Made by a program: the position numbers and the translations under genes. The notes under the pieces were generated by a model. It was not told where the DNA came from, did not search any database, and saw only the letters and a list, made by a program, of their open reading frames with translations. Shown in pieces: positions 13,100 through 64,000 of a DNA stretch of 64,000 nt (positions are counted from its first letter, which is position 1; each line of letters opens with the position of its first letter). This stretch comes from Spirochaetia bacterium (GTDB taxonomy: Bacteria; Spirochaetota; Spirochaetia; CADAEX01), in contig OY759746.1 of the NCBI GenBank assembly GCA_963662795.1, forward strand, positions 2,048,001 to 2,112,000, in the 5' to 3' direction.

Positions 13100-13370
13100 G
13101 TCCGGCCTTGGCGTTGCCGTGCGGCCTGGACAAGAAGCGATGATACTGGTGGATAACAGAGGATAAAGCGCTACGCTCGGAGTACCTCGCTTGGCCTGCG
13201 GCACACATCGTAGATTTTGAACACAACTTCTATAAGCAGCCAGTTTTAGAAGATAAATACTGCAACTTTGTAATATTCAATCTTAGACTACGATGCGTCG
13301 CTTATCCTCGGGACGTTATCCACAATATCATCGCAAGAGAACGCCGCCCGGACCTCCGGCCAACGGGCGA
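13100..13370 (+). repeat. Long attC-like composite site, core family II
   Basis: AAC 13155-13157, GTT 13315-13317. Confidence 0.88.
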
Positions 13371-13373
13371 AGA

Positions 13374-13443
13374 AAATAGAATCTTCTGTATAATATACTT
13401 TATTCATAACATATATTGTTTCTAGTTATTTAATATGTTAGAT
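13374..13443 (+). other. Conserved internal leader ending in attI-like crossover (carrier cassette 1)
   Basis: About 65-nt block shared by 6 carrier cassettes; similarity ends at TAGTTATTTAATAT-GTT (13437). Confidence 0.7.
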
Positions 13444-13468
13444 CGACGCTTTTGGCGCGAGGAGTGAA

Positions 13469-14617
13469 ATGAAAAAATCAATTTCAATAATGCTTGATAC
13501 CTCCATCTATAAACAGACGCCCAAACTAAACTCCGAACTATTTAAACGCTTCATAAAATACTCTCAAATAGGTTTTTTTAAACTGTATATATCTGAAATT
13601 ATTGAGAATGAATATATAACTTGGATTAAGAAAGAATCACAAGACGCACATGAAAACGTCGTTAAAAGCACAGAAGCCTTGAACAAGTTCTATGAGAAAC
13701 CTGATTTCTTTGGTTTGAATTTAAGGTACAACATTACAGCAGAAATAGCACAGACTCAAATCAATGAAATACTTAAGAAAGTACTCGAGAATTGGAATAC
13801 CTATAAGAAAGAAACAAAGGCTATTGTGATTCCGATTCATGACACTGATGGTAAACAAGTTATGAATGCATACTTTAACGGGAGCAAACCATTCAAAGCC
13901 GTTAAAAACAGATTGGATATTCCAGATGCCTTTATTTATTTCGCAATTATTCGAATATTAAAAACCGTCGATAAGATGGTATTCATTACACGTGATAAAG
14001 ACTTTTCAAATAGGATTAATAATGAAAGGATCAAAGTTTTTGAGAATCTAACAGAATTATTCTCAAAAGAAGAATATTCATTACAAAATGACTATTTCAA
14101 AGAATTAAACACAAATGACAAGGCATACTTCGTATTACAATACTTCAAGAAAGAAATAACAAGGAAGCTAGAACGACAAATCGAGATTACAGCATTATTC
14201 CCTGATTCGGAGCAAGAGCTAATCGATCACATTATTGGTGAGTATAAAGATTTAACTATAAAAACTAAGAATAGTGTACTGAATCTTAAGACTGTAAGAA
14301 TAATATCTGCCCTTTCGTTTCTCATTGAATTCACATCAGAAGTAGAATACTTGATCTCTTCAAAGGCAACAAAGGCTGACTTAGAATATGCAGGATCAGA
14401 AAGAATAAAAAAACTCAAAGGAAAGGAAATAAACGATGAAGACCTTTTTGATATCATCGAAGAAACTGTGATATCAATCGGTGGTAATATAAGTATTTCG
14501 TTCAAGGATTCCGATCCATTGATGTGGTCAGAGAAAGTAGTTAGTAACAATATTTTTCCAATAACTGAATTAGAGGAAATTAATATTGTTATAGAAGATT
14601 TTAAAAGATTGACCTAA
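13469..14617 (+). CDS. PIN-domain protein (DUF4935-like), nested cargo
   Basis: MLDTSIY, KPF..DIPDAFIY and FITRDKDF motifs. Confidence 0.7.
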   Translation: MKKSISIMLDTSIYKQTPKLNSELFKRFIKYSQIGFFKLYISEIIENEYITWIKKESQDAHENVVKSTEALNKFYEKPDFFGLNLRYNITAEIAQTQINEILKKVLENWNTYKKETKAIVIPIHDTDGKQVMNAYFNGSKPFKAVKNRLDIPDAFIYFAIIRILKTVDKMVFITRDKDFSNRINNERIKVFENLTELFSKEEYSLQNDYFKELNTNDKAYFVLQYFKKEITRKLERQIEITALFPDSEQELIDHIIGEYKDLTIKTKNSVLNLKTVRIISALSFLIEFTSEVEYLISSKATKADLEYAGSERIKKLKGKEINDEDLFDIIEETVISIGGNISISFKDSDPLMWSEKVVSNNIFPITELEEINIVIEDFKRLT

Positions 14618-14670
14618 CAATCGGTTCAACTTGATTCAGCTACGCCTCACAAGTTAAGCTAATGTTATAA
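14612..14670 (+). repeat. Short canonical attC site (59 bp)
   Basis: ACCTAAC-aatcgg-TTCAACTTG...CAAGTTAA-gctaat-GTTATAA with an extrahelical base. Confidence 0.85.
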
Positions 14671-14694
14671 AAATCAAAGATAGAAACGGGGGAA

Positions 14695-14949
14695 GTCCGG
14701 CCTTGGCGTTGCCGTGCGGCCCTGGACAAGAAGCGATGATACTGGTGGATAACAGCGAATGACCGGTTCCGGCTGTTTCTAAGGAAACAGCCTCCACCTA
14801 AATTGCCGAAATAATACATGTTAAGAATAATGGAAAAGAGTATAAACTTTTGGAGTGAAAACACCATCGGCAACTTCGGTCATTCGCGGGACGTTAGCAG
14901 CAATACGTCCCCAAGAAGACAATCGCCCGGACCTCCGGCCGACGGGCGA
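14695..14949 (+). repeat. Long attC-like composite site, core family IV
   Basis: AAC 14751-14753, GTT 14893-14895. Confidence 0.88.
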
Positions 14950-15036
14950 AGATAGTAATATATAAAAAATCAAATACTAAATATACCATCTCGAAGCTCT
15001 TTGAGAATAAACACAATGCAAATATGAGGATAAAAT

Positions 15037-15777
15037 ATGAGATATAAAATGAAATATTCAGAATATTCAAAATATTATTCATCAATTATTAATAAAAGTC
15101 GTTATGGTTTTGATAAACGTTCAAAGTATTTTCTGAAATATTTAGAAAAAACAAGTAATGAAAAAATATTAAAATTACCTTATGATTTTGAATTATTCCG
15201 AACTCAAAGAGGACATGTTGAAATTGAAGACAACTTTCAAATAACAATATCGCCATATAATAAAGAAAGAATGCTACCTAAAGCTGAAAAAATAAAAAAT
15301 GGACGTGTAAATCCAACTGGGATTCCAGTTTTATATCTATCTGATGATTATTTAACAGCAATAGCAGAAATTAGGCCATGGTTACAAGAAACAATTAGTA
15401 TTGCAAACTTTAGAACTACAAGAGAACTTTCATTGATTGATGTTTCAAAATATCGGAAAATATCAAGAATATTTATTAAAGAACCTAAAGATCCAATGAT
15501 TATTAAAGATAAAATATGGTCAGATGTTGGGCATGCTTTTTCACAACCAGTAACTATTGATGATCAGGAAATTGCTTATATTCCTACTCAAGTAATTAGT
15601 GAATACTTTAAAATGCTTGGATTTGATGGAATTTGTTATAAGAGTTTTCTAGGAAAAGGTAAAAATTATGCCTTATTTGATCTTGAATCAGTAGAAATAA
15701 AATATGGATTTGTTGTGGAAGTAAATGAAATTACAATAAATACGGAAAAGATTTGCAATCCCATACGCATACTATAA
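15037..15777 (+). CDS. RES-domain protein
   Basis: GRVNPTGIPVLYLS, TAIAEIRP, YIPTQVISE and DGICYKS motifs. Confidence 0.85.
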   Translation: MRYKMKYSEYSKYYSSIINKSRYGFDKRSKYFLKYLEKTSNEKILKLPYDFELFRTQRGHVEIEDNFQITISPYNKERMLPKAEKIKNGRVNPTGIPVLYLSDDYLTAIAEIRPWLQETISIANFRTTRELSLIDVSKYRKISRIFIKEPKDPMIIKDKIWSDVGHAFSQPVTIDDQEIAYIPTQVISEYFKMLGFDGICYKSFLGKGKNYALFDLESVEIKYGFVVEVNEITINTEKICNPIRIL

Positions 15778-15856
15778 AAAAGATTAAAAAGTTAAGATGC
15801 AATAGAAAACATAAAAACGGTTTGTTAATAATACTTAATTCTAAATAAGGTGAATT

Positions 15857-16441
15857 ATGTCTTGGAAAAAATTTGGATCTTTTATTGAAGGAATTACGGC
15901 TGCACAATTTTTAAAAAATAGGGCTGGAGAAAAAGGTTGTTTTATTGAATATCTATGTCTAAGCGCAACAATAACTGATGCAATACTACGAACTGCAATT
16001 ATATTAACAAATCAAATTAATAATTCTAATAAAGAAATTGATAGTAAATTATGTTATCAGGATAAACTTAAAAATAAAATCACAGAAAGAGAAATATATA
16101 GAATATCATATAAAATGAATATTATAGATAAAAAGCTATTTGATAAACTTAATAATATTTATGATAACAGAAATGAATCAATACATAGATATGCGATTAC
16201 TGAGATTAAATATAATGATATATTATCTTATTGTGAAATATATGACACAATCATTAAAGAATTAAATAGTATATTATATGGTATTGAAAAATTACAAATA
16301 GAAAAAGAAATTGGAATAACAGTATTAGGCCCAGAATGTACAGCTGCGGAATTATTTGATACATATGCAAAGGAAAAAATAAATAATGATTCAATTATAA
16401 AAGAAATTAAGGAAAATAAATACTTTAAGTCCAAAGACTGA
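15857..16441 (+). CDS. Hypothetical protein, possibly HEPN-like
   Basis: ORF with RBS; RNESIH matches Rx4H. Confidence 0.6.
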   Translation: MSWKKFGSFIEGITAAQFLKNRAGEKGCFIEYLCLSATITDAILRTAIILTNQINNSNKEIDSKLCYQDKLKNKITEREIYRISYKMNIIDKKLFDKLNNIYDNRNESIHRYAITEIKYNDILSYCEIYDTIIKELNSILYGIEKLQIEKEIGITVLGPECTAAELFDTYAKEKINNDSIIKEIKENKYFKSKD

Positions 16442-16480
16442 AAAACATTGTAATTTAATTATTTCCTATTAATATAAAAA

Positions 16481-16752
16481 GTCCAGCCTTGGCTCCGCCG
16501 TGCGGCCTGGACAAGAAGGGGACGTACAGCTGCTAACAGAGGATAATTCGCTTCGCTCGGAGTACCTCGCTTGGCCTGCGGCACACATCGCAGGTTTCGA
16601 ACTACAACTTATATAAGCAACAAGTTTTTGAAAAATAAATACTGCAATTTTGAAATATTTATACTTTGGATGCGATGCGTCGCTTATCCTCGGGACGTTA
16701 TAAGCAATGTTCCCGCAAGAGAACATCGCCCGGACCTCCGGCCGACGGGCGA
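16481..16752 (+). repeat. Long attC-like composite site, core family II
   Basis: AAC 16535-16537, GTT 16697-16699. Confidence 0.88.
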
Positions 16753-16853
16753 GGAAAAGTTGATCTGCTGAATAATAACCTATATTCATAAAATATATAG
16801 TTTTCTGATTATTTAATATATTATGCTGCCCTTTGGGCAGAGGAGGTAAAATA

Positions 16854-17723
16854 GTGTATAAAGCAACAGTAATTGAAACATTCATTGCCACGCCTAGTGA
16901 TATTGTTCAAGAAAGAGCATTCATTAGAGAAATTATTAATGAATGGAATATTGTAAATTCTAAAACTAGAAATGTAATTTTGAAGGATCTGGGCTGGGAA
17001 AATGATATTTATTCATCTTTTTCAGATGGGCGACCTCAAGAAAGCATAAACAAACAAATCTTAGAAGACGCTGACTTATTAATCGGTGTTTTTTGGACAC
17101 GAGTTGGAACCCCTACAGGTGATTATATCAGTGGTAGTGTTGAAGAAATTACAAAACATATTAATGCTCATAAACCAGTATTACTTTTCTTTTCAGATAT
17201 GCCAGTTAGACTTGATAGTGTTGATCAAAATCAATATCAAAAATTATTGGATTTTAAGAAATGGTGTCAAGAAATTGGAATTTATAATTCATATGACAAC
17301 CCAGAAGATTTTGTAAAAATATTTACAAGACAATTAGGTTTAGTTATGAATTCAGAAAAAAAAATACTTGATTTAATAGGATCTCCAGATCGTGTAGAAT
17401 ACTATGAAAATGAGTACAGAAATACAATCAAATTATCTGATAATGCAAAACAACTATTAAAAGAAATATCATTAGATCGTAGTGGCCAATTAATCGCAAT
17501 TATGACTTTAGGAGGTTATAATGTACAAACAAATGGCAAGAGCTTCGGATCTAAAAGAAATGATGCAAGAGCGAAAGCAGAGATAGATTCTGCGATTGAA
17601 GAACTTGAATCATTAAATTTGATTCGATCAAATCCCAAAAGAGAAATATTTACTATAAATGCAAAGGGGTATGAAATTGCAGATGAAATAACCCTCAAAA
17701 ATTATTTTGAAATCAATGAATAG
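16854..17723 (+). CDS. DUF4062-like domain protein with C-terminal winged-helix-like region
   Basis: FIATPSDIVQER, DLLIGVFWTRVGTPT and SGSVEEI; GTG start after GGAGG. Confidence 0.75.
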   Translation: MYKATVIETFIATPSDIVQERAFIREIINEWNIVNSKTRNVILKDLGWENDIYSSFSDGRPQESINKQILEDADLLIGVFWTRVGTPTGDYISGSVEEITKHINAHKPVLLFFSDMPVRLDSVDQNQYQKLLDFKKWCQEIGIYNSYDNPEDFVKIFTRQLGLVMNSEKKILDLIGSPDRVEYYENEYRNTIKLSDNAKQLLKEISLDRSGQLIAIMTLGGYNVQTNGKSFGSKRNDARAKAEIDSAIEELESLNLIRSNPKREIFTINAKGYEIADEITLKNYFEINE

Positions 17724-17907
17724 ATATATGCAATTAATATTCTTTATATTTTTAAAGAGGCAATTAACCAGGCAGCTTGAGGCGATGTTAAATGCACGGA
17801 AATATTCAGTTTTAGAATAACGATGGTTGTGTTAGAATGTATGAGAATAATAAAAATGTCTTATATTCTCGGGACGTTAAACGTAAGATAAAAAATATGG
17901 AACAAAA

Positions 17908-18765
17908 ATGGTTTATGAAGAAATAATAAACAATTTAAATGATATTATTGAAACTAATAAAAAGTGTGAAGATGTCTATAATACGTTCAAATTTTCTCAG
18001 GGTGTTATTAACGACAAACAAGTTTTATTGAAAAAAGATCCTGAAAGAAAAAATATGCTAGATGGATCTACATTTGTAAAGCCTAAAAAGTCAAATAGTA
18101 TTTATATTTATTTTGGATCAAAGTATTTAGATACATATTTAAAAAACAGTACATTACATAACACTATTCTAATACATGAATTAAAGCACTTATATGATTA
18201 TTGCCAAAATAAAGAATCTTTTTTTGAAAGCTCTGTAAAAGAGAAATATTTTTATGAATTTGAGGCAAGAAAAATTGAAGCAAAATTTATAAAATATTAT
18301 CTTGAAGGGAAATATAATTTAACAAAATTAGAACAATTAATGTTGAATAGCTATAATAATGATGGGTTAAATAATTTTATAATTTTATTTCAAAGAGTTG
18401 ATATGAATATCTACTGTATTTTTAAAGAATTGGAAGATGATTTCAATAAAAATATGATTTCTAAAGAAGAAATCATAAAGACATTAATTAATGGAGGGTA
18501 CAAAGTAATTGAAAGCTTTAAAATAGCTAATGAACAAAATAGAAAGTTTGCAAACTATGTTAGTATAATATCTTTTAGAAATTGTCTTGAAGATATTATA
18601 CTAGAAAATGAAAATAGTCATATTGTTTTTGAAGATTTAATTTTAAATGAAGAAATATTAAAAAGCATCTATATTAACTTGTATGAAATAATCGATAATT
18701 TTGAAACTTTTTTTAAAAGATATGCTTATTCAGTGGATATAGATCTTGAAAAAAATTATATGTAA
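17908..18765 (+). CDS. Hypothetical protein with HExxH metallopeptidase-like motif
   Basis: ILIHELKH followed by a downstream EFEA. Confidence 0.65.
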   Translation: MVYEEIINNLNDIIETNKKCEDVYNTFKFSQGVINDKQVLLKKDPERKNMLDGSTFVKPKKSNSIYIYFGSKYLDTYLKNSTLHNTILIHELKHLYDYCQNKESFFESSVKEKYFYEFEARKIEAKFIKYYLEGKYNLTKLEQLMLNSYNNDGLNNFIILFQRVDMNIYCIFKELEDDFNKNMISKEEIIKTLINGGYKVIESFKIANEQNRKFANYVSIISFRNCLEDIILENENSHIVFEDLILNEEILKSIYINLYEIIDNFETFFKRYAYSVDIDLEKNYM

Positions 18766-18827
18766 TAACTCTGTATTCTTCGTTAAACAAAGTGTACAGT
18801 TAGAATAAATATCTGACAGTTTAGGAA

Positions 18828-19083
18828 GTCCGGCCTTGGCTTCCAGCCGTGCGGCCTGGACAAGAAACGGGAACACAGCTTATAACAGCGAATGACCGGT
18901 TCCGGCTGTTTCTAAGGAAACAGCCTCCACCCAAATTGCCGAAATAATACATGTTAAGAATAATGGAATAGAGTATAAACTTTTGGAGTGAAAAACACCA
19001 TCGGCAACTTCGGTCATTCGCGAGACGTTATGCTCAATACCAGCCGCAAGAGAAAGCCGCCCGGACCTCCGGCCCACGGGCGA
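18828..19083 (+). repeat. Long attC-like composite site, core family IV
   Basis: AAC 18884-18886, GTT 19027-19029. Confidence 0.88.
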
Positions 19084-23914: not shown

Positions 23915-24205
23915 TCCAAGCCTTGGCGTTGCCGTGCGGCTTGGAAGAGAGGGGCGGTACTTCGGAGAACAGCGATTATTTCGCTGCGCTCCCTATGGTA
24001 GCTTGGGCTCCTGCCAGTCGAACCGGCAGATCGCCATATTTTGTTTTCATAAAACCAGAACTGCATGTATTTTATGCTTTTTAATTTTAAAAAAATTAAA
24101 AAAATGTATTTTTAAAGTTTAGCCGCAAAACATCGAATAATCGCGAGACGTTATCCACAATATCATCGCAAGAAAGCGCCGCCCGGACCTCCGGCCAACG
24201 GGCGA
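23915..24205 (+). repeat. Long attC-like composite site, core family III
   Basis: AAC 23968-23970, GTT 24150-24152. Confidence 0.88.
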
Positions 24206-24207
24206 AG

Positions 24208-24279
24208 AAAGTAGAATCTGCTGTATAATATACTTTATACATAACATATATAGTATACTAGTTATTTAATATGTTATGC
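24208..24279 (+). other. Conserved internal leader ending in attI-like crossover (carrier cassette 2)
   Basis: TAGTTATTTAATAT-GTTATGC, GTT at 24273. Confidence 0.7.
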
Positions 24280-24708
24280 TGCACATAAGAAAAATATACA
24301 ATAATTTAATTTGGAGGAAATTATGAATGTTCATAAACTAAGAATTCTATTGCTAAATGTAATTATTATTTTGATCAGTTGCCAAACAATGAATGGTGGT
24401 GATAAACCTTTCTTATTGCAAGGGCCAAAAGAGACAGTTGTTAAAAAGCAGAATTATATTGCTAACGAACTAAAACGAATATTCTTAACAAATGAGAGAA
24501 TTGCAAATGGTGATTCATCAATTGATGAAATTTATAAAAACTATATTGAATCTGTAAATTCTGTAAAAATAGAAGTTGAGAAAGCTTTAAATGAATTTAC
24601 TTCTAAACCTGGTAACATGAAAAATAACAAAAAAATATATACTTACTTTACAAAATTATCATCTTTGGCTGAACTTCAAAATATATTCAGTGATAGTTTA
24701 AATAAACT

Positions 24709-25983
24709 CATAGGTGTCCAAAACAATCATAACAGCTCCAGTTGAAGATTGAAACTAGTTTTTTTAGTCTGTTCTGAAGGCGGTTTATTGAGAACAGTCC
24801 AGATATCTTTTCTTGATGTCAGTATTACAGGAATCAATTTCATCAGTGAAAAATGAGTCCATTTTCTACATGAAAACATTTTAAGGAACTGAAGTAACAG
24901 AAAAGCAATTAGGGCAATCCAGATTTGTGTCATTACAGCATTTCTGGAAGTACCAAAGAATTTCTTGATCTTGAGGTTCTGTTTGATAGTTTTAAAAAAT
25001 ATTTCAATCTGCCATCTGTCTTTGTAAACAGCAGCAATTGTTGTTGGAGACCAAAGGAAATTATTGGTAAGAATTACAATATATTTACCGGTTTCAGGAT
25101 CTCTGCTTCTGATTCGTCTTAATTTTAACGGGCATTTTTTACTGGTGTAAAATCCTTTCATTTCTATGATCTGATCAGATGTAATATTTTTAAAGGAGGA
25201 GGTATCTTTTCTCTGGACAATTTTATAATCAGCATTCTTTTTTAACCTGGTAACAAAATAAATACCGGTATTACAATAATTTGCGAATAATTTAAAGTCA
25301 GTATAACCACGATCAAACGTGATGACATCGCCTTTGTTGAAAGCCATTTTTTTCAAGGAATTGACTTCATGTGTTTTTGCAGTTGTAACTGATACAAAAG
25401 CTGGAATATATCCACTATGGTCAAGTTTTACATTAAGTTTTATTCCGCCTTTATATTTTCTGAAATTTGCCCATGGAAAGAGATTTAAACACAAGTCAAT
25501 AGTTGATGCATCAACACTGTAAAGAGGATTTTTAAATTTATGTTTATGCGCTCTCTTCATGGATAATATCTTATCAAGAAGATCAGTGAAAACATTTTCA
25601 TAAACTTCACAGCTTCTATTATTATTTGCGTAAGATAATGTAGAGCGTTTTACCTTTTTTACACCCATATGATAAAGGTGGTTACTGATTGATTCAAAAG
25701 AGTTTTCAATGCCTCTTAACCCGGTCTGTCCTGAAAGTTGTGCAAAGAGCATGGAGACAAAATGCTGCCAACAGGTAAAACCTTTGGAAGCAAAGTCCCC
25801 TTTATGTTTTTTTACAGATTTTTCAAATTCATGTCTCGGAATTATTTGTAGAATTTGTTTTAAAATGGTATTATTGTAACTCATTGCCTGATTTCCTTTT
25901 CCTGTAAAGAATTAGCCGTCCAAGCTTAATTCATTATAGTTGGGATTTCAGGCAATTAATAGTCCTTGTTTTGGACACCTATG
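24709..25983 (-). mobile_element. IS4-family insertion sequence, copy 3
   Basis: Same IRs; target duplication AAATAAACT. Confidence 0.93.
24727..25884 (-). CDS. IS4-family DDE transposase
   Basis: Protein identical to copies 1 and 2. Confidence 0.93.
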   Translation of the reverse strand: MSYNNTILKQILQIIPRHEFEKSVKKHKGDFASKGFTCWQHFVSMLFAQLSGQTGLRGIENSFESISNHLYHMGVKKVKRSTLSYANNNRSCEVYENVFTDLLDKILSMKRAHKHKFKNPLYSVDASTIDLCLNLFPWANFRKYKGGIKLNVKLDHSGYIPAFVSVTTAKTHEVNSLKKMAFNKGDVITFDRGYTDFKLFANYCNTGIYFVTRLKKNADYKIVQRKDTSSFKNITSDQIIEMKGFYTSKKCPLKLRRIRSRDPETGKYIVILTNNFLWSPTTIAAVYKDRWQIEIFFKTIKQNLKIKKFFGTSRNAVMTQIWIALIAFLLLQFLKMFSCRKWTHFSLMKLIPVILTSRKDIWTVLNKPPSEQTKKTSFNLQLELL

Positions 25984-26604
25984 AAATAAACTATATAATG
26001 AAAATGGTGGAAAATATAATGTCCTTGGTTCAGATAAGTATGCACAAAATAAACATTATTTTGAAAATGAAGAGCAGTTATTACTATTTTTCAATAATAA
26101 ATATCCTGAAATTGAAAAATCATTTACTATTGTAAATGATGTTTTAGCAACAGTTGATATTGAGAAAGAGAATATTCTTAAGTATTCAAAAGAGCATGAA
26201 TACAGTGAATTGCTAAAATTTGTTGAAGAAAAATATAACAAACAATTAACAATGTCTCTTAGTAAAATAGTTGGTGAAAATACTTTGTTATCTGCAGCGA
26301 TATTTAATAATTACAGCAATGATCGATTGTATTATCTTGGTAATGCATTTGAACAATTACAATTATTAGAAGACGGGATTTTGATTATTGCAACATCAAA
26401 TTTAAATTCATATAGTTTCTTCTTAAAAACAGAAGAAAAGAATCCAGATGGATATAGATTCACTGATAAAGATTTTGTGTTCATTGATGGATTGTATGAA
26501 TATGAAAGCTTAACAGGAAGAAAAACAGTTTATAAATTAATTCATGTAAAAGCACTAAAAGAATACTATTTCATCTAGATAAAAATTAAAAATTGAAGAG
26601 TTCA

Positions 26605-26701
26605 GCATAATATTCAATTGGATCAGACAAACCTACCTGTCATGGTTTTTGCATTCGCAAAAACACACGCCAGTTTACGGTTTGCAGGTCAATTGGGCGT
26701 T
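26605..26701 (+). repeat. Short canonical-type attC site, split at its GTT by IS1182
   Basis: CAGCATAAT (complements cassette start GTTATGCTG, AAC mutated to AAT)..ATTGGATC...GGTCAAT-tgggc-GTT. Confidence 0.7.
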
Positions 26702-28457
26702 GAGGCTGTAGATAAAGTGTAAATTTTCAACAATTGCTTTATATCCAGATATTCCCATGATAAAATTCTATCAGACTGGGAGATTACAAAATGGGTAAAT
26801 ACAAAGAGTATTCTTATGAACAAAAAGTGCTGCTGCCGATAGATTTTTCCGAGCAGGTTCTTCCCGGAACCTTTGAACACACACTCAATTTTCTCATTGA
26901 CCGGGAAATTGATTTAACCATGTTTTATGAAAAACATAAAAATGATGAAAATGGAGCTCCCGCCTACGATCCGGCGATCTTACTGAAGATAATTCTTTTT
27001 GCTTATTCACGGGGAATTATTTCCAGCAGAAGAATTGCCCGATTATGTCGGGAAAATGTCGTTTGCATGTCCCTCTCCGCAGATACCCGGCCGCACTTTA
27101 GCACCATAGCTGATTTTATTTCTACGATGGATAAAGAAATCGCTCCCCTGTTTACCCGGATTCTCTCGGTCTGTTACGCCAATAACGTCATCGATAAAAA
27201 CATGTTTGCCATCGACGGCTGCAAGATTTCTTCCAATTGCTCAAAGGAATGGAGCGGAACGAAAAAAGAACTGCTAAAAAAAGCGGGAAAGATAGAGGAA
27301 TCTATCAAATACCTGTTGGAAAAACATAAACAGGAAGATAAAAGCCGGTATAGTCAAAGTCAGGAAGAGAAAGAAAAGGCTTCGATAGAGAAACTGAAAG
27401 CTAAATCCCAAAAGATCCATGACTGACTGAACTCAAATGACGATAGAATGGGAAGCCAGGGGAAACCAATAAAAAGCAATATTACCGACAATGAAAGCGC
27501 GAAGATGTCCACCTCCCATGGAGTTATCCAGGGTTATAACGGAATTGCGGCGGTTGATGAAAAGAACCAATTAATCGTTTGGGCGGAAGCATTTGGCGAC
27601 AGCAATGAATCCAAACATTTCCCCGAGATTCTGGATGGAATAAAAAACAATTTTAAATCGATTCAGGCATCGGAAGATATCTTGAAAGAAACAGTGATTA
27701 CCGCCGACAGCGGTTTTCATAATGATAATAATATGAAGCTGATTGTGGAAAATAACCTGACAGCCTTTGTCGCGGACAACCAGTTTCGAAAGAGGGATGT
27801 GAGATTTGCATCAGCCCAGAAACATAAACAAAAACCTGTCACGAATTGGGAACCTGCCAAAGGGAAAAAATATTACTCAGTAGATGATTTTATCTATGAT
27901 GAAAATACAAAGAAATTAATGTGCCCAGCTGGTTTCGAAATGAAACTGAAGTGCAGGAACTTTCAAAGCTCTGGCTATAGTGGAACATCCTACATAGGGA
28001 GAAAGGAAAACTGCTTAACCTGTCCGCTAAGAAAGAAGTGTATACGTAAAGAGAGCACGGAAGTCAGACAGGTGACCAGGTTTGATAGTAGTCGGGGAAA
28101 AGAAAAGGTCTCATTTACAGAACGAATGAGGAGAGTCTTTGACGCGCCTGAAGGTCGGAGTATCTACAGTAAAAGAATGGGTACTGTAGAACCGGTGTTT
28201 GGAAATATCCGATCGACACTGGGGTTAAATTATTTTACACTGCGAAGTAAGAATAAGGTAAATGTTCAATGGTTGCTTTTCTGTATTGTGCATAACATTG
28301 GAAAAATACAGAGGTATGCGGAAGCATAGGGGAAAATAGAGGATGAAATGAATCAGGGATTACATTTTGACCTCACAAGACAATCTTATGGACTTTATGA
28401 TCTTGTAGAATGGGAGAAGTAAATGAAGATTGAAAATCGGGGTTTTTCTACAGCCTC
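26702..28457 (+). mobile_element. IS1182-family insertion sequence
   Basis: IRs GAGGCTGTAGATAAA / TTTTTCTACAGCCTC; flanked by GTT on both sides; higher GC than surroundings. Confidence 0.85.
26791..28329 (+). pseudogene. IS1182-family transposase with in-frame TGA at 27424-27426
   Basis: GAPAYDP..LLK, AIDGCKI, ADSGF and RMGTVEPVFGNIR; both ORF halves are in the same frame. Confidence 0.85.
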
Positions 28458-28481
28458 GTTATATCGAAAAAGGTATTAAAA

Positions 28482-29876
28482 ATGATTAGACAGAAAGAAA
28501 TTGAGAGAATAAGACAAAATAGAGTTAAGTGGTTTTGCCATCATGTGAAAATATTCCAGGAAAACATTAAAGATGGAATTTCACTTGAAGGCCATGGAAC
28601 TTTGGAAGTGAATGATAGGGGTAGTCTGTACATCGATTTCATTTGCACAAGGTCAAATATCCGGCCTGATTTTAGGGAATCTATACCAAATGATACACTA
28701 GATACAAATGCTTTACTGATACTTAATGCCGAAACAATAACTGGAATCAAAATTACATCAAAAAATATTATTATAAAGCCTCAATTATTCAATTCAATGC
28801 AACCAGAACCAACATATTATAGAATACCTCTAGACGAAATAATATCAACAACTGAAGATAAGTCATCATATCAAAATCAGTCTATGATTATTGAATGCCA
28901 TGAAAATTTATTAATTCCTTCAAATAAATCGAATAGCATTGTATCAACATTAGGGAATGAATCACATAGTTGGAATGAAACAGAATTAAATATTGCTGAA
29001 AATAAAATCAATATAATAAAGCACGATAATTATTCAGAAATAATTATACGAGGAGAAAGTTTTGAAGAACAAGAATACCTTGAATCAATACTCTTGTATT
29101 TAAAAATAACAAGCGGAAATAATTTACAACCATATTACATATCAGTTCATAAAGAAAATATTATTAATGAAAAAGTTATTAGCATAGACTTAAATAATCT
29201 AAATAAAAGTATACCTTCACCTATTCCAGAAAATGCTGCTGATGTAAAAGGATATAGGTTGGATAACTACCATTATGATTTATTAGAAAATATTATAAAG
29301 ATAAAACAATCTTCGGAACATTATTTTACTACAATAGCATCTCACTGGCATAATATATGGTCAGCATTTCATGTGAAGAATCTATATATACCTAATTTAG
29401 TCTTATCTTTATCAATAGAAGGTATATTAAACGATATATTTATTCCTGTTTTAGAAAAAGTAACAATGGATTCTGAATTTGAAAAAATAAAAAAAGAAAT
29501 AAATTGTAAAATATCAAAAATTGATGGAATAGAAGAAAAGTATATAAAAAATATTAATGATTATGTAAATAGATGGGGAAATATTCATCCTAAAAAAGCA
29601 TTAGAAATTCTACAAGAGAAAGACCTCATTGAGAAAAAGCAAAAAGAGATATGGGAAATTTTAAGAAATAAATCAGCACATCCAAGAAATTCTGATAATC
29701 TTAAAACAATCAGAAAAAAGGATTATGAAAGATTAGTAGTATGCCTTGGATTGTTTTATGTTTTAATTCTAAATGTTTTTAAATTTGAGGGTGCACAATT
29801 TTCTTTTGCAAAAATTAAAGATGAGAAAATAGTGCTAAATCCTTATATAAACATATTGTACAATAATTCGATATAA
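28482..29876 (+). CDS. Hypothetical protein, ApeA/HEPN-like (nested cargo)
   Basis: 464 aa; SIEGIL followed by LRNKSAH (Rx4H) in the C-terminal part. Confidence 0.6.
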   Translation: MIRQKEIERIRQNRVKWFCHHVKIFQENIKDGISLEGHGTLEVNDRGSLYIDFICTRSNIRPDFRESIPNDTLDTNALLILNAETITGIKITSKNIIIKPQLFNSMQPEPTYYRIPLDEIISTTEDKSSYQNQSMIIECHENLLIPSNKSNSIVSTLGNESHSWNETELNIAENKINIIKHDNYSEIIIRGESFEEQEYLESILLYLKITSGNNLQPYYISVHKENIINEKVISIDLNNLNKSIPSPIPENAADVKGYRLDNYHYDLLENIIKIKQSSEHYFTTIASHWHNIWSAFHVKNLYIPNLVLSLSIEGILNDIFIPVLEKVTMDSEFEKIKKEINCKISKIDGIEEKYIKNINDYVNRWGNIHPKKALEILQEKDLIEKKQKEIWEILRNKSAHPRNSDNLKTIRKKDYERLVVCLGLFYVLILNVFKFEGAQFSFAKIKDEKIVLNPYINILYNNSI

Positions 29877-29934
29877 CAATCGCATGAACCAGATTTTCGC
29901 CATGTACGGAAAACAGGTTATGGGGGCGTTATAA
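29871..29934 (+). repeat. Short canonical attC site (64 bp)
   Basis: TTCGATATAAC complements cassette start GTTATATCGAA (28458); ATGAACC..GGTTAT-gggggc-GTTATAA. Confidence 0.85.
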
Positions 29935-29954
29935 AAAAAATAGAAACGGGGGAA

Positions 29955-30200
29955 GTCCGGCCTTGGCGTTGCCGTGCGGCCCTGGACAAGAAGCGATGAT
30001 ACTGGTGGATAACAGCGGTTAAAGCGCTGCACTCGGAGTACCTCGCTTGGGCTTCGCCATAAAGGCGCGAACAAATACAGGTTAGGTCTAGAGTAATCAA
30101 TAAAACTTGTTTATTTTAAAGCAAGTGCGCCTTCATCGCTTAACCGCGGGACGTTAGTAGCAATACCCCGCCAAGAGAGAAGCGTGCCGTCCTGGCACGC
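29955..30200 (+). repeat. Long attC-like composite site, core family I variant
   Basis: AAC 30011-30013, GTT 30153-30155; right hairpin GCGTGCCGTCCTGGCACGC. Confidence 0.85.
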
Positions 30201-41808: not shown

Positions 41809-42076
41809 CGCTTTCGCACGTCCTGTGCTCAAGCGAAGAGGGGCGAAATTAGGAGAAGAAGGCGCGGTTCATCGTATAACAGCGAATGACCGGTTCCGGC
41901 TGTTTCTAAGGAAACAGCCTCCACCCAAATTGCCGAAATAATACATGTTAAGAATAATGGAATAGAGTATAAACTTTTGGAGTGAAAAACACCATCGGCA
42001 ACTTCGGTCATTCGCGGGACGTTATCCACAATATCATCGCAAGAGAACACCGCCCGGACCTCCGGCCAACGGGCGA
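41809..42076 (+). repeat. Long attC-like composite site, core family IV
   Basis: AAC 41878-41880, GTT 42021-42023. Confidence 0.85.
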
Positions 42077-42077
42077 A

Positions 42078-42150
42078 GAAAATAGAATCTGCTGTTTAAT
42101 ATACTTTATACAGAACATATATAGTTTTCTAGTTATTTAATAGGTTAGGC
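42078..42150 (+). other. Conserved internal leader ending in attI-like crossover (carrier cassette 3)
   Basis: TAGTTATTTAATAG-GTTAGGC, GTT at 42144. Confidence 0.7.
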
Positions 42151-42189
42151 GGACGCCTACACTGAGGCGCTTTTTAGTAGGAGTATAAA

Positions 42190-42777: not shown

Positions 42778-42831
42778 TAGTGTAATTGCAATTATTGAAT
42801 TATCTGTTTACTATAGTTTTGGAATTTTATA

Positions 42832-45804: not shown

Positions 45805-45810
45805 GAAAAC

Positions 45811-45924
45811 GCTTAACAACTGCTTCAAGCTGATTCGGCTATGTCACGATTCTTGCTAGTCGTCGCTACTCATCTCGGTAAGAATTGCGCCATATACGCC
45901 TCGCAGGTTAAGCAAATATTATAA
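45811..45924 (+). repeat. Short canonical-type attC site (R' mutated to ATTATAA)
   Basis: GCTTAAC-aactgc-TTCAAGCTG...CAGGTTAA-gcaaat-ATTATAA; roughly complements cassette start GTTAGGC. Confidence 0.75.
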
Positions 45925-45946
45925 AACAAAAATAGAAACGGGGGAA

Positions 45947-46215
45947 GTCCGGCCTTGGCGTTGCCGTGCGGCCTGGACAAGAAGCGATGATACTGGTGGA
46001 TAACAGAGGATAATGCGCTTCGCTCCCTTTGGTCGCTTGGCCTGCGGCACACATCGTAGTGTTTGAACTACAACATTTATTAACAACGAGTTTTGAAAAA
46101 TATTATATAGCTTTGGAATATTCATTCTTGGACTACGATGCGTCGCTTATCCTCAGGACGTTATCCACAATATCATCGCAAGATGACACCGCCCGGACCT
46201 CCGGCCAACGGGCGA
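45947..46215 (+). repeat. Long attC-like composite site, core family II
   Basis: AAC 46002-46004, GTT 46160-46162. Confidence 0.88.
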
Positions 46216-49223: not shown

Positions 49224-49498
49224 GTCCGGCCTTGGCGTTGCCGTGCGGCCCTGGACAAGAAGCGATGATACTGGTGGATAACAGCGGTTGAAGCACTACG
49301 CTCGGATTACCTCGCTTGGCCTTCGGCAAACATCGTAGGATTTGAACTACAACTTTTAGAAACATTAAGTTTTTGAAAGACAATAAATAAAAGCATTGAG
49401 TATTCTATTCTTGGTCTACGATGCTTCGCTTAACCGCGGGACGTTATCCACAATATCATCGCAAGAGACCATCGCCCGGACCTCCGGCCAACGGGCGA
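49224..49498 (+). repeat. Long attC-like composite site, core family I
   Basis: AAC 49280-49282, GTT 49443-49445. Confidence 0.88.
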
Positions 49499-49499
49499 A

Positions 49500-49571
49500 G
49501 AAAATGTGATCATTTGTAAATATATTTATACATAGAAATATATAGTTTTCTAGTTATTTAATATGTTATAT
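49500..49571 (+). other. Conserved internal leader ending in attI-like crossover (carrier cassette 4)
   Basis: TAGTTATTTAATAT-GTTATAT, GTT at 49565. Confidence 0.7.
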
Positions 49572-49658
49572 TTAACTCAATTTGAAAAGGAGAGGAAATC
49601 ATAATTATCATATCTAATTGATTTGGGTGTGTTATAATATATCTATTAATAAAAGGAG

Positions 49659-50735
49659 ATGTTTATGAGTGATAATAAGAAATTCCCAAAAGAATTAGAG
49701 ATTCCAAAACCCCCAGAGCGATATAATAAAAATATAAAAGTGAAAATTAGTAAAGATGATGTTGCAAATGTAAATTTATTTATGATGGCATGTGATTGTG
49801 ATGAATATAAAAGTTCGAATAGAAGTGAATATGAAAAATCAGATATTAGAAGAATGTGTCGTCATATCGCAAAATTATATAAGAAAAAAATTAGAACTGA
49901 TAAAATAGATTCAATTAAAACAATGATGATAGAATCTGGTGAAGGGATTAAACCCTCTATAATTTATTTAGAATCAGAAGAATTGGGATATAGTATATGT
50001 ATCGCATTCCAAATAGGATTACCTTGGATAGATGTTTATGCAAAGAATATAAATGGAATTTATAAAAAGCATGTATATAATTATTCAAACAAAGAATGGC
50101 AAGGTAAAATTTCTTATAATAAAGAACTAATAGATGCTTTAGAGTCTTTTATTTTAGAGAATATTCAAGATAATTCAAATGCTAAAGCAAATGAAAAAAA
50201 GAATGGAGAAGAAAGAAATTACCATCAATATGTAGAAATACCAGAACTTAGTGAAGAATATAATAAAGATATCATAGTAAAAGAAGATAATAAGAAATAT
50301 AAATTGAACTTGTTTAAAATGGAATGCTCTTGCAAGGAATTTGATAAGAAAAAACATTATAGGTTAGGTGATTCAAGGAGAATGTGTTTTCATTTAAGAC
50401 GAGAATTTTGGAATACAACAGAGTTTAAGAAATTAAACAAACTCGAGCAAACTCTTATAAAGAATAATTATGGTAATAAAGATAATCTATTTATTTTTGA
50501 ATTAAAAAATGATTTAAGTTTTGCCATTTCATATGATGATGATAGAGAAGAATATTCAAGTTGGTATAATGTAATAGCCAGAAAGAATAATGGGCAATAT
50601 ATCTGTTATGCTTATAATCCTTATAGTAAACGATGGGCAAAAGACAAAAATCCAGAATTATACAAAGAAGAAATTGAGAATTTAGTAAATAGTATTGATA
50701 TTTTCGCTCAGAAAGATATAGACGAAGAATATTAA
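49659..50735 (+). CDS. Hypothetical protein with two tandem SWIM-like Zn-finger domains (nested cargo)
   Basis: Internal duplication NLFMMACDC..RRMCRH / NLFKMECSC..RRMCFH. Confidence 0.65.
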   Translation: MFMSDNKKFPKELEIPKPPERYNKNIKVKISKDDVANVNLFMMACDCDEYKSSNRSEYEKSDIRRMCRHIAKLYKKKIRTDKIDSIKTMMIESGEGIKPSIIYLESEELGYSICIAFQIGLPWIDVYAKNINGIYKKHVYNYSNKEWQGKISYNKELIDALESFILENIQDNSNAKANEKKNGEERNYHQYVEIPELSEEYNKDIIVKEDNKKYKLNLFKMECSCKEFDKKKHYRLGDSRRMCFHLRREFWNTTEFKKLNKLEQTLIKNNYGNKDNLFIFELKNDLSFAISYDDDREEYSSWYNVIARKNNGQYICYAYNPYSKRWAKDKNPELYKEEIENLVNSIDIFAQKDIDEEY

Positions 50736-50741
50736 GAGTAA

Positions 50742-50880
50742 ATATAACAAGAGATTTGGAGTAGTCAAAATTTATTGACACGATTCTGGCTAAAGACGTT
50801 CGGGCAATGGCCCTCACTCCAGAATCGCGCCAATTCCGCGAAGACGCGGACCAATTTTGCTACTCAAATCGTCGTTATAA
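50742..50880 (+). repeat. Canonical-type attC site
   Basis: AAATATAAC complements cassette start GTTATATTT; TTTGGAGTAG...CTACTCAAA-tcgtc-GTTATAA with an extrahelical G. Confidence 0.85.
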
Positions 50881-50897
50881 AAATAGAAACGGGGGAA

Positions 50898-51191
50898 GTC
50901 CGGCCTTGGCGTTGCCGTGCGGCCTTGGACAAGAAGCGATGATACTGGTGGATAACAGCGATTATTTCGCTGCGCTCCCTTTTGGTCGCTTGGGCTCCTG
51001 CCAGTTGAGCTGGCAGAGCGCCATATTTTGTTTTTATAAAACCAGAACAACATGTGTTCTATGCTTTTTATGTTTGAAAAATCAAATAAATGTATTTTAG
51101 AGTTTAACCACAAAACATCGAATAATCGCGAGACGTTATCGGCAATGGCTGGGCGAAGAGAACACCGCCCGGACCTCCGGCCCACGGGCGA
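50898..51191 (+). repeat. Long attC-like composite site, core family III
   Basis: AAC 50954-50956, GTT 51135-51137. Confidence 0.88.
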
Positions 51192-61792: not shown

Positions 61793-61832
61793 AAGGTTAT
61801 ATAGAGCGAGTAATTACTTGATAGTAGTTGGA

Positions 61833-62087
61833 GTCCAGCCTTGGCTTCCAGCCGTGCGGCCTGGACAAGAAGCGGGAACACAGCTTATAACAGCGAATGG
61901 CCGGTTCCGGCTGTTTCTAAGGAAGCAGCCTCCACCCAAATTGCCGAAATAATAAATGTTAAGAATAATGGAATAGAGTATAAACTTTTGAAGTAAAAGA
62001 CACCATCGGCAACTTCGGTCATTAGCGGGACGTTATCCACAATATCATCGCAAGAGGAAATCGCCCGGACCTCCGGCCAACGGGCGA
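61833..62087 (+). repeat. Long attC-like composite site, core family IV
   Basis: AAC 61889-61891, GTT 62032-62034. Confidence 0.88.
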
Positions 62088-62088
62088 A

Positions 62089-62161
62089 GAAAATAGAATC
62101 TGCTGTATATTATACTTTAGACATAACATATATAGTTTACTAGTTATTTAATATATTAGGT
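62089..62161 (+). other. Conserved internal leader ending in attI-like crossover (carrier cassette 5; G mutated to A)
   Basis: TAGTTATTTAATAT-ATTAGGT at 62155. Confidence 0.6.
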
Positions 62162-62189
62162 TCACTTAAAATAAATAAAGCTGGTGGTT

Positions 62190-63179
62190 ATGAAAGCGAG
62201 ATATCAACAGGTATTAGATAAAAGTAAAGCGGCATTATTATCCGCAATTGAGCTTTATAATAAGCCACAGTATCTATATCGTGAAGAATCTTTTGCAATA
62301 TTATGTATAAATGCATATGAATTACTTTTTAAAGCAAAATGGCTTCATCTTCATAATAATAAATTAAACAGCCTATATACTTATGAATATAGAATTACAA
62401 AGAGTGGAAAAAAGTCAAAGAAAAAAACAATAAAAACAACAAGAAGCAATAATCCATTAACCCGCGAAATTAGTTATCTAGCAAATAAACTAATCGAACA
62501 GAAATTTTTAAATGGTATATTATGGGCTAATGTTCAATTACTTTTAGAAATTAGAGATTGTTCAATTCATTATTACAATAAAAATAATGCTTTATTACTA
62601 AAATTACATCAGGTTGCTTTAGCTTCAGTTAAAAATTTTGGAATTTTATTAAGAAACTGGTTTCCTGATGAATTGTCTGATTTTTCTACATCAATATTGC
62701 CAATTGCAATTATGGATAATGTACAGGAGAGTGATATTATTAGTTTAGAAAAAGATGAAGTACAAATAATACAGTTTATCCAAGCATATGAAGAAACCTT
62801 CAATGATGAAGAATCAGAATTTTCAATTTCACTTTCATTATCGTTAAACCTAAAAAAAGCAAAACCTGGTGAAGCCGTGATAGTAAGAATTGGAAATACA
62901 TCAGATATTAAATTACCAACAGTTAGGCTTTCAGATGAGCAAATTAGAGAGAGATATCCAATAACATATAATGAATTGAGTCGGAAATTAAGGTTAAGAT
63001 ATAGTGATTTTAAAATGGACTCTAAGTATCATGAATTGAGAAAGGCAATAACCAATAATAAAAAGTATTGTTATATTAGAGAGCTAGATCCAGGAAATGA
63101 AAAAACTCAAAAAAAACAATTCTATAGTAATGCAATAATTGAATATTTTGACCAAAATTATGAAAAAAAAGGAATCTAA
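62190..63179 (+). CDS. DUF3644-domain protein (nested cargo)
   Basis: LLSAIELYNKP..YREESF..NAYELLFKA and EIRDCSIH motifs. Confidence 0.78.
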   Translation: MKARYQQVLDKSKAALLSAIELYNKPQYLYREESFAILCINAYELLFKAKWLHLHNNKLNSLYTYEYRITKSGKKSKKKTIKTTRSNNPLTREISYLANKLIEQKFLNGILWANVQLLLEIRDCSIHYYNKNNALLLKLHQVALASVKNFGILLRNWFPDELSDFSTSILPIAIMDNVQESDIISLEKDEVQIIQFIQAYEETFNDEESEFSISLSLSLNLKKAKPGEAVIVRIGNTSDIKLPTVRLSDEQIRERYPITYNELSRKLRLRYSDFKMDSKYHELRKAITNNKKYCYIRELDPGNEKTQKKQFYSNAIIEYFDQNYEKKGI

Positions 63180-63229
63180 TAACCTTTCACTGCGTTTGGG
63201 CGCAATTACAGGTTAAGCGAATGTTAAAA
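63174..63229 (+). repeat. Degenerate short attC site
   Basis: ATCTAAT...CAGGTTAA-gcgaat-GTTAAAA; 3' half resembles the sites at 14612 and 45811. Confidence 0.6.
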
Positions 63230-63253
63230 AAAATAAAAATAGAAACGGGGGAA

Positions 63254-63525
63254 GTCCGGCCTTGGCGTTGCCGTGCGGCCTGGACAAGAAGCGATGATAC
63301 TAGTGGATAACAGAGGATACTGCGCTACGCTCGGAGTACCTCGCTTGGCCTGCGGCACACATCGTAGATTTTGAACTAAAACATCTATAAACAACAAATT
63401 TTTGAAGAAAAATACTGCAACCTTGAAATATTAACTCTTAGGCTACGATGCGTCGCTTATCCTCAGGACGTTATCCACAATATCATCGCAAGAGAACGCC
63501 GCCCGGACCTCCGGCCAACGGGCGA
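63254..63525 (+). repeat. Long attC-like composite site, core family II
   Basis: AAC 63309-63311, GTT 63470-63472. Confidence 0.88.
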
Positions 63526-63526
63526 A

Positions 63527-63599
63527 GAAAATAGAATTTGCTGTATAATATACTTTATACATATCATATATGGTTTTCTAGTTATTTAATATGTTATGT
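63527..63599 (+). other. Conserved internal leader ending in attI-like crossover (carrier cassette 6)
   Basis: TAGTTATTTAATAT-GTTATGT, GTT at 63593. Confidence 0.7.
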
Positions 63600-63626
63600 T
63601 TCAAAAAAGTTGGAGGTTAATAATTA

Positions 63627-64000
63627 ATGAGTACTTTAATTATTGATTTATCTCAATTTCCAGAAAGATTCAAAGAAAATAGTAGAAAAATTACAATCAC
63701 CAATAATGTTAATTTTATCTTTGGTAAAAATGGGACAGGAAAGACTACTATTTCAAATGTGATTTCAGATAATTTCTCAAGCAAATATGATATACATGTT
63801 TTTAATGGATTTGATGGAGTCGTTGGCGAGAATTATAGATTAGATGCAGTTTCATTAGGAACGATAAATGCAACAATTCAAAATGAAATTAATACAATTA
63901 CTGAAGAAATAAAAGTGATTTCAAGTAATATTGAAAAACCAATAGATAAAAAAGAAAACCTATTTACGAAATATGAGAAATCAAGAAATGTTTGTGATAA
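63627..64000 (+). CDS. AAA/ABC-type ATPase (RloC/AAA_13-like), runs off the window edge
   Basis: GGAGG then ATG 63627; NFIFGKNGTGKTT Walker A; HVFN motif. Confidence 0.7.
   Translation, partial: MSTLIIDLSQFPERFKENSRKITITNNVNFIFGKNGTGKTTISNVISDNFSSKYDIHVFNGFDGVVGENYRLDAVSLGTINATIQNEINTITEEIKVISSNIEKPIDKKENLFTKYEKSRNVCD

Follow-up and report, generated by a model that had tools for sequence, protein, structure and literature searches.

The 64,000-nucleotide stretch of DNA analyzed in the current study (positions 2,048,001 to 2,112,000 of contig OY759746.1 of a Spirochaetia bacterium, assembly GCA_963662795.1; referred to as the window) is part of a giant array of integron-like gene cassettes, some of which hold further cassettes of the canonical integron type behind a conserved leader sequence. 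We consider it about 70% probable that these units, here termed carriers, are two-tier composite cassettes, in which canonical cassettes have been inserted at an attI-like site in the leader of an outer cassette. Such a nesting had been proposed in an initial annotation of the window. The outer tier would consist of noncanonical integron-like cassettes with class-specific complementary arms, two GC-rich hairpins, and a long attC-like site. The last ~28 nucleotides (nt) of the leader (ATATATAGTTTTCTAGTTATTTAATAT|GTTA) would represent a secondary, double-stranded attI-like landing site, and canonical cassettes would have been inserted successively at its G|TT, resulting in a mini-array of one or two cassettes per carrier. 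The leader half that contains TATAAT would transcribe the inner cassettes, and the whole carrier would then be stored, copied, and moved by the outer system.

The genome is a single contig of 3.93 Mb (G000:C1) with a G+C content of 39.7%, compared with ~31% in the window. The junction word GGGACGTTA (at most one mismatch) is found 34 times in the window, exclusively on the plus strand, versus 4.7 expected occurrences, and genome-wide its density is high solely between 1.84 and 2.18 Mb. The outer array, inside which the window is located, comprises 187 cassettes in ~332 kb, an approximate number that is based on our own regular expression and a context filter. All junctions are located on the plus strand, from the first one (..CTAGGA|GTTATACG; L001, ~9950) to position 2,180,706, and the cassettes have a median length of 1,512 nt (range, 624 to 6,003 nt). 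At the 5' end, an outer cassette is composed of G|TTA, ~16 class-specific bases, a conserved linker, and the hairpin CGCCCGGACCTCCGGCCRACGGGCG; at the 3' end, a second conserved hairpin (AGTCCGGCCTTGGC...GGACAAGAAG) is followed by the reverse complement of the cassette's own first ~20 bases, which ends ..ATAAC. The cassette closes with a fold-back site of 140 to 190 nt ending ..GGGAC|GTTA, and its computed circular joint folds into one long stem through arms and hairpins. Arms of this type are present in 8 of the 60 related genomes searched. With respect to Rfam (Rfam 15), no family reached the gathering score in the whole window, and three chance-level matches were all that the region 13100-17000 gave at an E value of ≤5; the outer sites as a curated RNA or DNA motif were thus ruled out. 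A tRNA scan of the window found none.

The gene for a tyrosine recombinase of 339 amino acids precedes the first junction by ~150 nt and has the same orientation. The scores of the protein are 200 bits, in two stretches, against TIGR02249 (cutoff, 265) and 214.5 against XerA (cutoff, 220), and in the alignment with VchIntIA (2a3v), the 66 residues 173 to 238 are replaced by 24 residues, i.e., the IntI-specific insertion is absent. The array resembles integrons in that co-oriented cassettes with G|TT junctions lie next to a tyrosine recombinase and a primary attI (ending CTAGGA|GTTAT), but its recombinase lacks the additional domain on which the IntegronFinder definition of an integron is based. 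The outer system is hence integron-like in operation, yet it falls outside the defining IntI membership because the array recombinase is devoid of this insertion, and for the same reason the term "nested integrons" of the initial annotation is a loose one.

The leader is a conserved, AT-rich stretch of ~66 nt that ends TAGTTATTTAATAT|GTT at a distance of 97 to 115 nt from the cassette start. It is present in 28 of the 187 outer cassettes (about one in seven), which represent six arm classes with 10, 7, 6, 3, 1, and 1 members. In the window, a 17-mer of the leader matches eight times with at most two mismatches (0.24 expected), and it is located on the plus strand at positions 13423, 24259, 42130, 49551, 62141, and 63579. 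The initial annotation had described six units of a single arm class, whose similarity stops at GTT. This end point was borne out by the alignment of the 28 leaders, in which the majority base is held by ~80 to 100% of the copies up to GTTA and by ~40 to 60% beyond it. The six named units do belong to one class, but the six arm classes of the genome, and a seventh carrier in the window (16697-19026), had been missed. The crossover triplet occupies one aligned position in the 28 leaders (23 GTT, 3 ATT, 1 TTT, and 1 GGT). The leader thus shows the fixed G|TT crossover of an attI, and one or two cassettes are stacked behind it; it does not adjoin an integrase gene of its own, and its copies lie inside cassettes all along the array, with no positional relationship to the nearest recombinase genes. 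It folds no better than shuffled sequences on either strand (z, -0.36 on the plus and -0.12 on the minus strand) and is therefore not an attC, a behavior expected of a double-stranded, attI-type site. The candidate explanation of a small attC was rejected on the same grounds and because the R''-like CATAAC of the leader is not conserved among the copies. The end of the leader, AATAT|GTTAT, is identical to the attI core of the relative G057 and close to those of G011 (TATAT|GTTAT) and G008 (GTAAT|GTTAT), the crossovers of which were located via the R'' of the first cassette. Three direct GTT repeats (aGTTttctaGTTatttaatatGTTa) were recognized by eye in the leader, and such repeats are also found in canonical attI regions of relatives. 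TATAAT is conserved in the upstream half, which, judged from this motif, probably transcribes the inner cassettes. On the metagenome contig L026, the last ~28 nt of the leader and a loaded cassette are retained and the TATAAT half is absent; the landing and the promoter-like parts are therefore separable.

The inner regions were compared for 27 of the 28 carriers, i.e., those whose 3' arm was found within the searched span; carrier 16697 was left out because its arm lies past an internal junction. In each of them, an attC-like site ends 17 to 92 nt ahead of the 3' arm at G|TTATAAAA or a variant, and it is followed by an A/G-rich tail, which varies with the arm class. These terminal sites are ~60 to 140 nt long and show inverted R'' (..YAAC) and R' (GTT....) cores that flank an imperfect L''/L' stem; their folds pair the R and L boxes, and the 139-nt inner attC folds better than shuffles (z, -9.2). 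Our own attC heuristic gave false positives in open reading frames (ORFs), missed real sites, and was excluded from all counts. In the window, the R'' coordinates of five inner attCs (14612, 29871, 45811, 50742, and ~63174) that had initially been annotated are correct, and the common tail reported behind the five complete units, TAGAAACGGGGGAAGTCC, occurs exactly five times (14681, 29941, 45933, 50884, and 63240; 0.01 expected). The terminal R' of unit 42021 had been misplaced; it is ATTATAA at 45918 rather than GTTAAGC, which lies inside the stem.

The R'' of an inner site is complementary to the first bases of its own cassette, as is typical of attC sites. For the cognate test, the 10 bases that follow the leader G were reverse-complemented and matched against the 190 nt holding the terminal site, which resulted in a mean of 8.15/10 for cognate pairs versus 6.85 (standard deviation, 0.76) for noncognate ones. 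A score of ≥9 was reached by 11 of the 27 cognate pairs compared with 2.8% of the noncognate ones, a score of ≥8 by 19 of 27 compared with 15.8%, and none of 10,000 permutations of the pairing attained the observed cognate sum. The R''/start pairs proposed for individual units are indeed present: GTTATATTT/AAATATAAC in unit 49443, and two in unit 24150, where GTTATGCTG goes with the R'' of the first cassette (CAGCATAAT at 26603) and the start of the second cassette (GTTATATCGAA at 28458) pairs with the terminal R'' TTCGATATAAC. A joint between leader and cassette that is located at one G|TT and is cognate with the cassette's own R'' in most carriers is the expected residue of repeated attI x attC insertion.

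Relatives with complete integrons provided the link to canonical cassettes. TIGR02249 scored above its cutoff in 15 of 61 genomes, including G005, G008, G011, and G057; in these relatives, ordinary arrays of attCs with 70 to 139 nt adjoin the IntI genes, and the four genomes also have long-site arms, at loci other than that of IntI. The search for a canonical IntI, which had been suggested by the initial annotation, was accordingly positive in relatives, and the copy of the present genome is a pseudogene (see below). Twelve attCs were taken from arrays beside above-cutoff IntI genes of G011, G008, and G057 and compared with the whole 3.93-Mb genome. They gave 11 matches with an identity of up to 95% over 138 nt, all of which are located inside leader-bearing carriers; 10 of them correspond to the terminal site 17 to 92 nt before the 3' arm, and one is internal (1,096 nt before the arm). 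All full-length matches are co-oriented and point away from the attI. When the 27 terminal inner sites were in turn used as queries, they had 30 matches in carriers, one in a fossil carrier, and none elsewhere. In the fossil (G000:C1:1947999-1949041), a canonical attC precedes the 3' arm, and no more than ~20 nt of the leader are left behind the hairpin. Relatives of the attC of unit 42021 are present in 6 of 60 other genomes, some of them within the canonical arrays of G005 and G008. Direct evidence that the site family is used by a bona fide IntI thus exists for ~11 to 12 of the 27 carriers, and the short attC family of units 13315 and 62032 had no match in the canonical arrays compared. As far as can be judged from these searches, the canonical attC families of this genome are confined to positions behind a leader. 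Because they match carriers only, we conclude that canonical integron cassettes are nested in the cassettes of a second, noncanonical system, in agreement with the two tiers originally proposed. Among the matches listed, the attCs are the only cargo common to the carriers and the compared parts of the canonical arrays.

All 27 compared carriers are differently loaded, as had been anticipated; their inner regions share no cargo apart from two families of insertion sequences (ISs), both of which are present in multiple copies in the genome. In a search of one genome per species of the genome collection, the leader pattern was found elsewhere only in G005 and G008, which belong to another genus; it is also present on two metagenome contigs (L026 and L027), and a decayed copy is present in G011. 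Contig L027 covers a carrier from the leader through the cargo, the canonical attC, and the tail to the 3' arm. On the same contig, an inner cassette with a canonical attC bears decayed copies of both outer hairpins around its genes (~120-160 and ~2590-2640) and looks like a hybrid. The leader-cassette and the attC-tail-arm joints are covered without differences by contigs of sequencing runs from two studies, which argues against an assembly artifact. One of the outer cassettes is a chimera (G000:C1:2159450-2161492; 111450 in window numbering) in which a 5' arm and the leader's first half (up to ACTTTATA) are followed by an unrelated stretch that includes an IS copy and then by the 3' arm of another class. 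In run X8, which is labeled as a marine metagenome, the bin of the segment 50671-51337 of the window that contains the 139-nt attC has a summed contig depth of 97.6 (most bins, <6), and this attC family seems to be abundant there without the rest of the array.

Several observations weigh against the two-tier reading. Empty carriers, which had been predicted as leader plus tail, were found neither in this genome nor in 301 genomes of the class (degenerate pattern), and the carriers in the genomes of two relatives (G005 and G008) and on the two metagenome contigs are all loaded. A joint in run X1 that connects position 49568 (leader GTTA) with 57074 (...AAAGAAGTCCGGCC, start of a 3' arm) is a possible empty carrier, but it is a lead only, with 27 letters on the shorter side, intervening letters that are not known, and repeats on both sides. 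Beyond the ~10-nt core (AATAT|GTTAT), the leader has no homology to the canonical attI regions of four relatives, and the 28-nt leader pattern (at most three mismatches) is not found beside IntI in five IntI-bearing genomes, where the known G005 carrier was the sole match. The leader as a copy of a canonical attI was rejected beyond the core, as short-word BLAST against eight IntI loci revealed only AT-rich matches of 9 to 17 nt. The consensus promoter scan does not list the leader, and the number of promoter-like sites in the region is within the range of shuffles (98 versus 86 +/- 12). The cognate score is ≤7 in 8 of the 27 carriers, mostly units with several cassettes or decayed ends, and the short inner sites alone do not fold more stably than shuffled sequences (z, -0.56 and -0.89). 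The only IntI of the genome with the extra domain (412,371-413,302; L013, ~4371-5302; TIGR02249 positions 4-184 and 178-314) is a pseudogene (one frameshift and three stop codons), although no other genome has as many carriers; no cassettes are located next to it, and an rRNA operon adjoins. Finally, carrier 16697 contains an outer-type junction, so that the two tiers are not cleanly separate, and together with the hybrid inner cassette of L027 it documents some cross-talk between them.

As for the acting enzyme, a canonical IntI is the candidate that we slightly favor, and it would have to be ancestral or supplied in trans because the copy of this genome is a pseudogene. The Xer-like array recombinase is a possible, less favored agent, and any other enzyme would come as a surprise. 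The alternative that the array recombinase alone acts on both the long outer and the short canonical sites, with the leader as its second attI and without any need for a canonical IntI, appears rather unlikely to us, notwithstanding the common layout of both site types (...YAAC-A...stem...G|TTA), the outer-type junction within carrier 16697, and the coexistence of 28 carriers with a broken intI. The array moreover harbors two further Xer-like recombinases, one of which was compared and is 37% identical to the array recombinase. If one enzyme handled both types of sites freely, canonical attC families should also occur directly between outer cassettes; they were found exclusively behind a leader. 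Moreover, the core of the leader resembles those of canonical attIs and not the array's own attI, and the carrier-bearing relatives also have an intact IntI at another locus.

IntI1 inserts cassettes at many GWT sites of a genome, where they are expressed near a promoter and excisable, according to the accessible part of the report (10.1101/2022.09.11.507474). The leader might accordingly be a mere promoter-bearing, AT-rich stretch, in which cassettes landed at GTT as at such attG sites and were kept for the sake of the promoter, and its lack of long homology to canonical attI regions would fit this scenario. We regard it as quite improbable, since the same G|TT position is used in 28 of 28 leaders although the GTT is mutated in five of them. 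In addition, the ~28 nt ahead of it are among the best-conserved columns and are retained in the metagenome copy without the TATAAT half, and the site is kept in carriers of another genus.

Even less credit can be given to a single ancestral capture, in which a canonical attI with its cassettes became cargo once, the leader and tail spread by homologous recombination or gene conversion, and the GTT has never recombined since. The near-identical arms, leaders, and tails could drive gene conversion, the leader occurs with six arm classes, and the canonical intI of the genome is dead; but conversion of the flanks would not create 27 different first cassettes that start with bases complementary to their own R'', and the carriers share no cargo apart from the IS families. 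The reverse reading (tail, outer site, and leader as a cassette in a canonical array) was ruled out by the complementarity of the 5' and 3' arms of one unit and by the plain outer cassettes that flank most carriers.

The two-tier reading thus remains our preferred explanation, and its components in the seven carriers of the window are compiled in the table.

Coordinates of the carriers in the window and of their components (position 1 is the first letter of the window)
Feature	Position	Strand	Details
Carrier 1	13315-14892	+	Arm class GTTATCCACAATATCATCGC; 5' hairpin 13345-13370; leader 13371-13436; crossover G 13437
Carrier 1, inner cassette	13437-14664		ORF 13469-14617 (PIN_12); inner attC 14612-14670; tail 14665-14693
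Carrier 1, 3' end	14694-14892		3' arm from 14694; outer R'' GGATAAC at 14747; outer attC to 14892
Carrier 2	16697-19026	+	Arm class GTTATAAGCAATGT; leader 16753-16819, ends ATAT|ATTA (A for G)
Carrier 2, inner region			Two units split by outer-type junction GGGAC|GTTA 17871-17879; ORFs 16833-17723 (PDC-S60-like) and 17908-18765
Carrier 2, 3' arm	from 18827		Cognate with 5' arm; outer R'' TTATAAC at 18880
Carrier 3	24150-30152	+	Leader 24206-24272; crossover G 24273; tail 29929-29953; 3' arm from 29954
Carrier 3, cassette A	24273 to ~26704		attC from 26603 (R'' CAGCATAAT); interrupted by an IS (transposase 24727-25884, minus strand)
Carrier 3, second IS	~26705-28457		Inverted ends GAGGCTGTAG / CTACAGCCTC; exactly at R' GTT of attC A
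Carrier 3, cassette B	28458-29928		ORF 28482-29876; attC 29871-29934 (R'' TTCGATATAAC)
Carrier 4	42021-46159	+	Leader 42077-42143, ends ATAG|GTTA; crossover G 42144; tail 45919-45945; 3' arm from 45946
Carrier 4, inner cassette			One cassette; ORFs 42190-42777 and 42832-45804 (UvrD/GajB-like helicase with zinc ribbon); attC 45811-45924, R' ATTATAA at 45918
Carrier 5	49443-51134	+	Leader 49499-49564; crossover G 49565; tail 50875-50896; 3' arm from 50897
Carrier 5, inner cassette			ORF 49659-50735; 139-nt attC 50742-50880, ~80-90% identical to attCs of the canonical integron in G057
Carrier 6	62032-63469	+	Leader 62088-62154, ends ATAT|ATTA; tail 63224-63252; 3' arm from 63253
Carrier 6, inner cassette			ORF 62184-63179 (DUF3644, PDC-S19-like); attC ~63174-63229; R'' CTAAT pairs with ATTAG start
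Carrier 7	63470-64000 in window; whole unit 63470-66135	+	Leader 63526-63592; crossover G 63593
Carrier 7, inner attC	~65825-65900		91% identical over 75 nt to a canonical-integron attC of G011

Of ten proteins encoded in the inner regions of the window, five could be assigned to Pfam families (one each to PIN_12 and DUF3644, one as a UvrD-type helicase with a zinc ribbon, and two as transposase pieces), and three matched PADLOC models, i.e., PDC-S19 over its full length, PDC-S60, and a GajB-like one. The two tandem inner cassettes that had been annotated in unit 24150 are real, but the unit also contains two ISs, one of them inserted precisely at the GTT of R' in the first inner attC. The reading of this element as a further cassette ("cassette 2") with a collapsed attC was rejected because it is an IS with inverted ends. 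The 1.76-kb IS (DUF772 and DDE_Tnp_1_6; inverted ends GAGGCTGTAG) at ~26705-28457 has a GTT on both sides and is also present in a second carrier (97010 in window numbering) and in at least four other places of the genome; it may have a preference for attC crossover sites. The second family, an IS of ~1.28 kb with a 385-amino-acid transposase (DDE_Tnp_1/DUF4372), is located in the window at 5292-6449, 6677-7834, 24727-25884 (minus strand), and 38686-39843. It has at least 17 copies in the genome, several of which are in the array, and in the carrier at 75233 (window numbering) it is inserted 8 nt behind the leader crossover.

With respect to the remainder of the array, the two additional Xer/IntI-like recombinase genes are located on the opposite strand (window 2713-3597 and G000:C1, ~1881755-1882309). 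The product of the former is the one that was compared above; it likewise lacks the IntI insertion, and its gene follows a decayed junction at ~2500-2700. The shortest outer cassettes are four of 624 nt (class GTTATGCGAAAGGC, e.g., G000:C1:1891172-1891795), which have little space for genes between their arms and may be gene-less. The first cassette behind the array attI (L001, 10168-10789) encodes VapC (PIN), with a small ORF ahead of the VapC gene, and the cassette at 1633 (window 1785-2446) has the same layout, i.e., a small ORF followed by one of 133 amino acids. Addiction modules stabilize large integron arrays.

Integrons are regarded as having one attI, at a fixed position next to intI. 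In the genome analyzed here, mobile cassettes contain an attI-like site together with a probable promoter as cargo; this site is present in 28 copies, each of which is followed by its own mini-array of canonical cassettes, and several of these cassettes resemble candidate antiphage genes. The carriers bear on the question of how cassettes are made, repackaged, and expressed deep inside giant arrays. We lean towards the view that the carrier is a portable adaptor between two recombination systems, i.e., a mobile cassette of an Xer-type, integron-like system whose own content is confined to a promoter and an attI-type site for canonical IntI cassettes. It would allow the host to capture such cassettes, to provide them with a promoter, and to file, copy, and move them in a 332-kb array that is run by a different recombinase. 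If this holds true, it would be the first multicopy mobile attI and a concrete route for the repackaging of cassettes between systems. Should the leader be active, two cassette systems with different tyrosine recombinases would work together, cassettes far down a very large array would gain a route to transcription, and a compact landing pad of 28 to 66 nt would be available for direct testing. A practical aspect is that integron-finding software may call the inner sites scattered attC clusters without an integrase and thereby overlook the outer system.

A published description of cassettes that are nested in the cassettes of a second system was not found in the literature; supplements, which may list attI and attC sites, were outside the scope of this search. 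The closest mechanistic parallel is attI x attC insertion as known from attI1 of class 1 integrons and from sedentary chromosomal integrons, with which the carriers share the G|TT crossover, the stacking behind one fixed double-stranded site, a cassette start that complements its own R'', and an upstream promoter, which is putative in our case. In contrast, the leader is not located beside an integrase gene but occurs 28 times, in each case within a mobile cassette that belongs to a second system, and has no sequence in common with known attI sites past the ~10-nt core. The attG sites of IntI1 likewise receive cassettes outside of attI and attC, at GTT, which are expressed if a promoter is near; as described in the accessible part of that report (10.1101/2022.09.11.507474), they are many unrelated sites that share only GWT, whereas all 28 cases observed here have one conserved 28-nt context. 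The predicted empty carrier resembles the promoter-bearing, gene-less cassettes of Vibrio superintegrons (10.1101/2023.11.21.568050), for which the accessible text reports no landing site that holds other cassettes. The nearest published cases of spirochete integrons or complex sites are, as far as the available portions of these papers go, the chromosomal integrons of Treponema (Wu et al. 2013, PMC3607928) and the DUF1874 motif (Weinberg et al. 2017, PMC5737381). The former have a bona fide IntI and simple attCs, and arms, hairpins, leaders, or nesting are not mentioned in the portion of the paper at hand. The latter is a multistem structure that recurs in consecutive intergenic regions, as do the outer sites of our array, and it was proposed to be an unusual, more complex attC for which no integrase was seen; the outer sites are not this motif, since Rfam 15 gave no match in the window.

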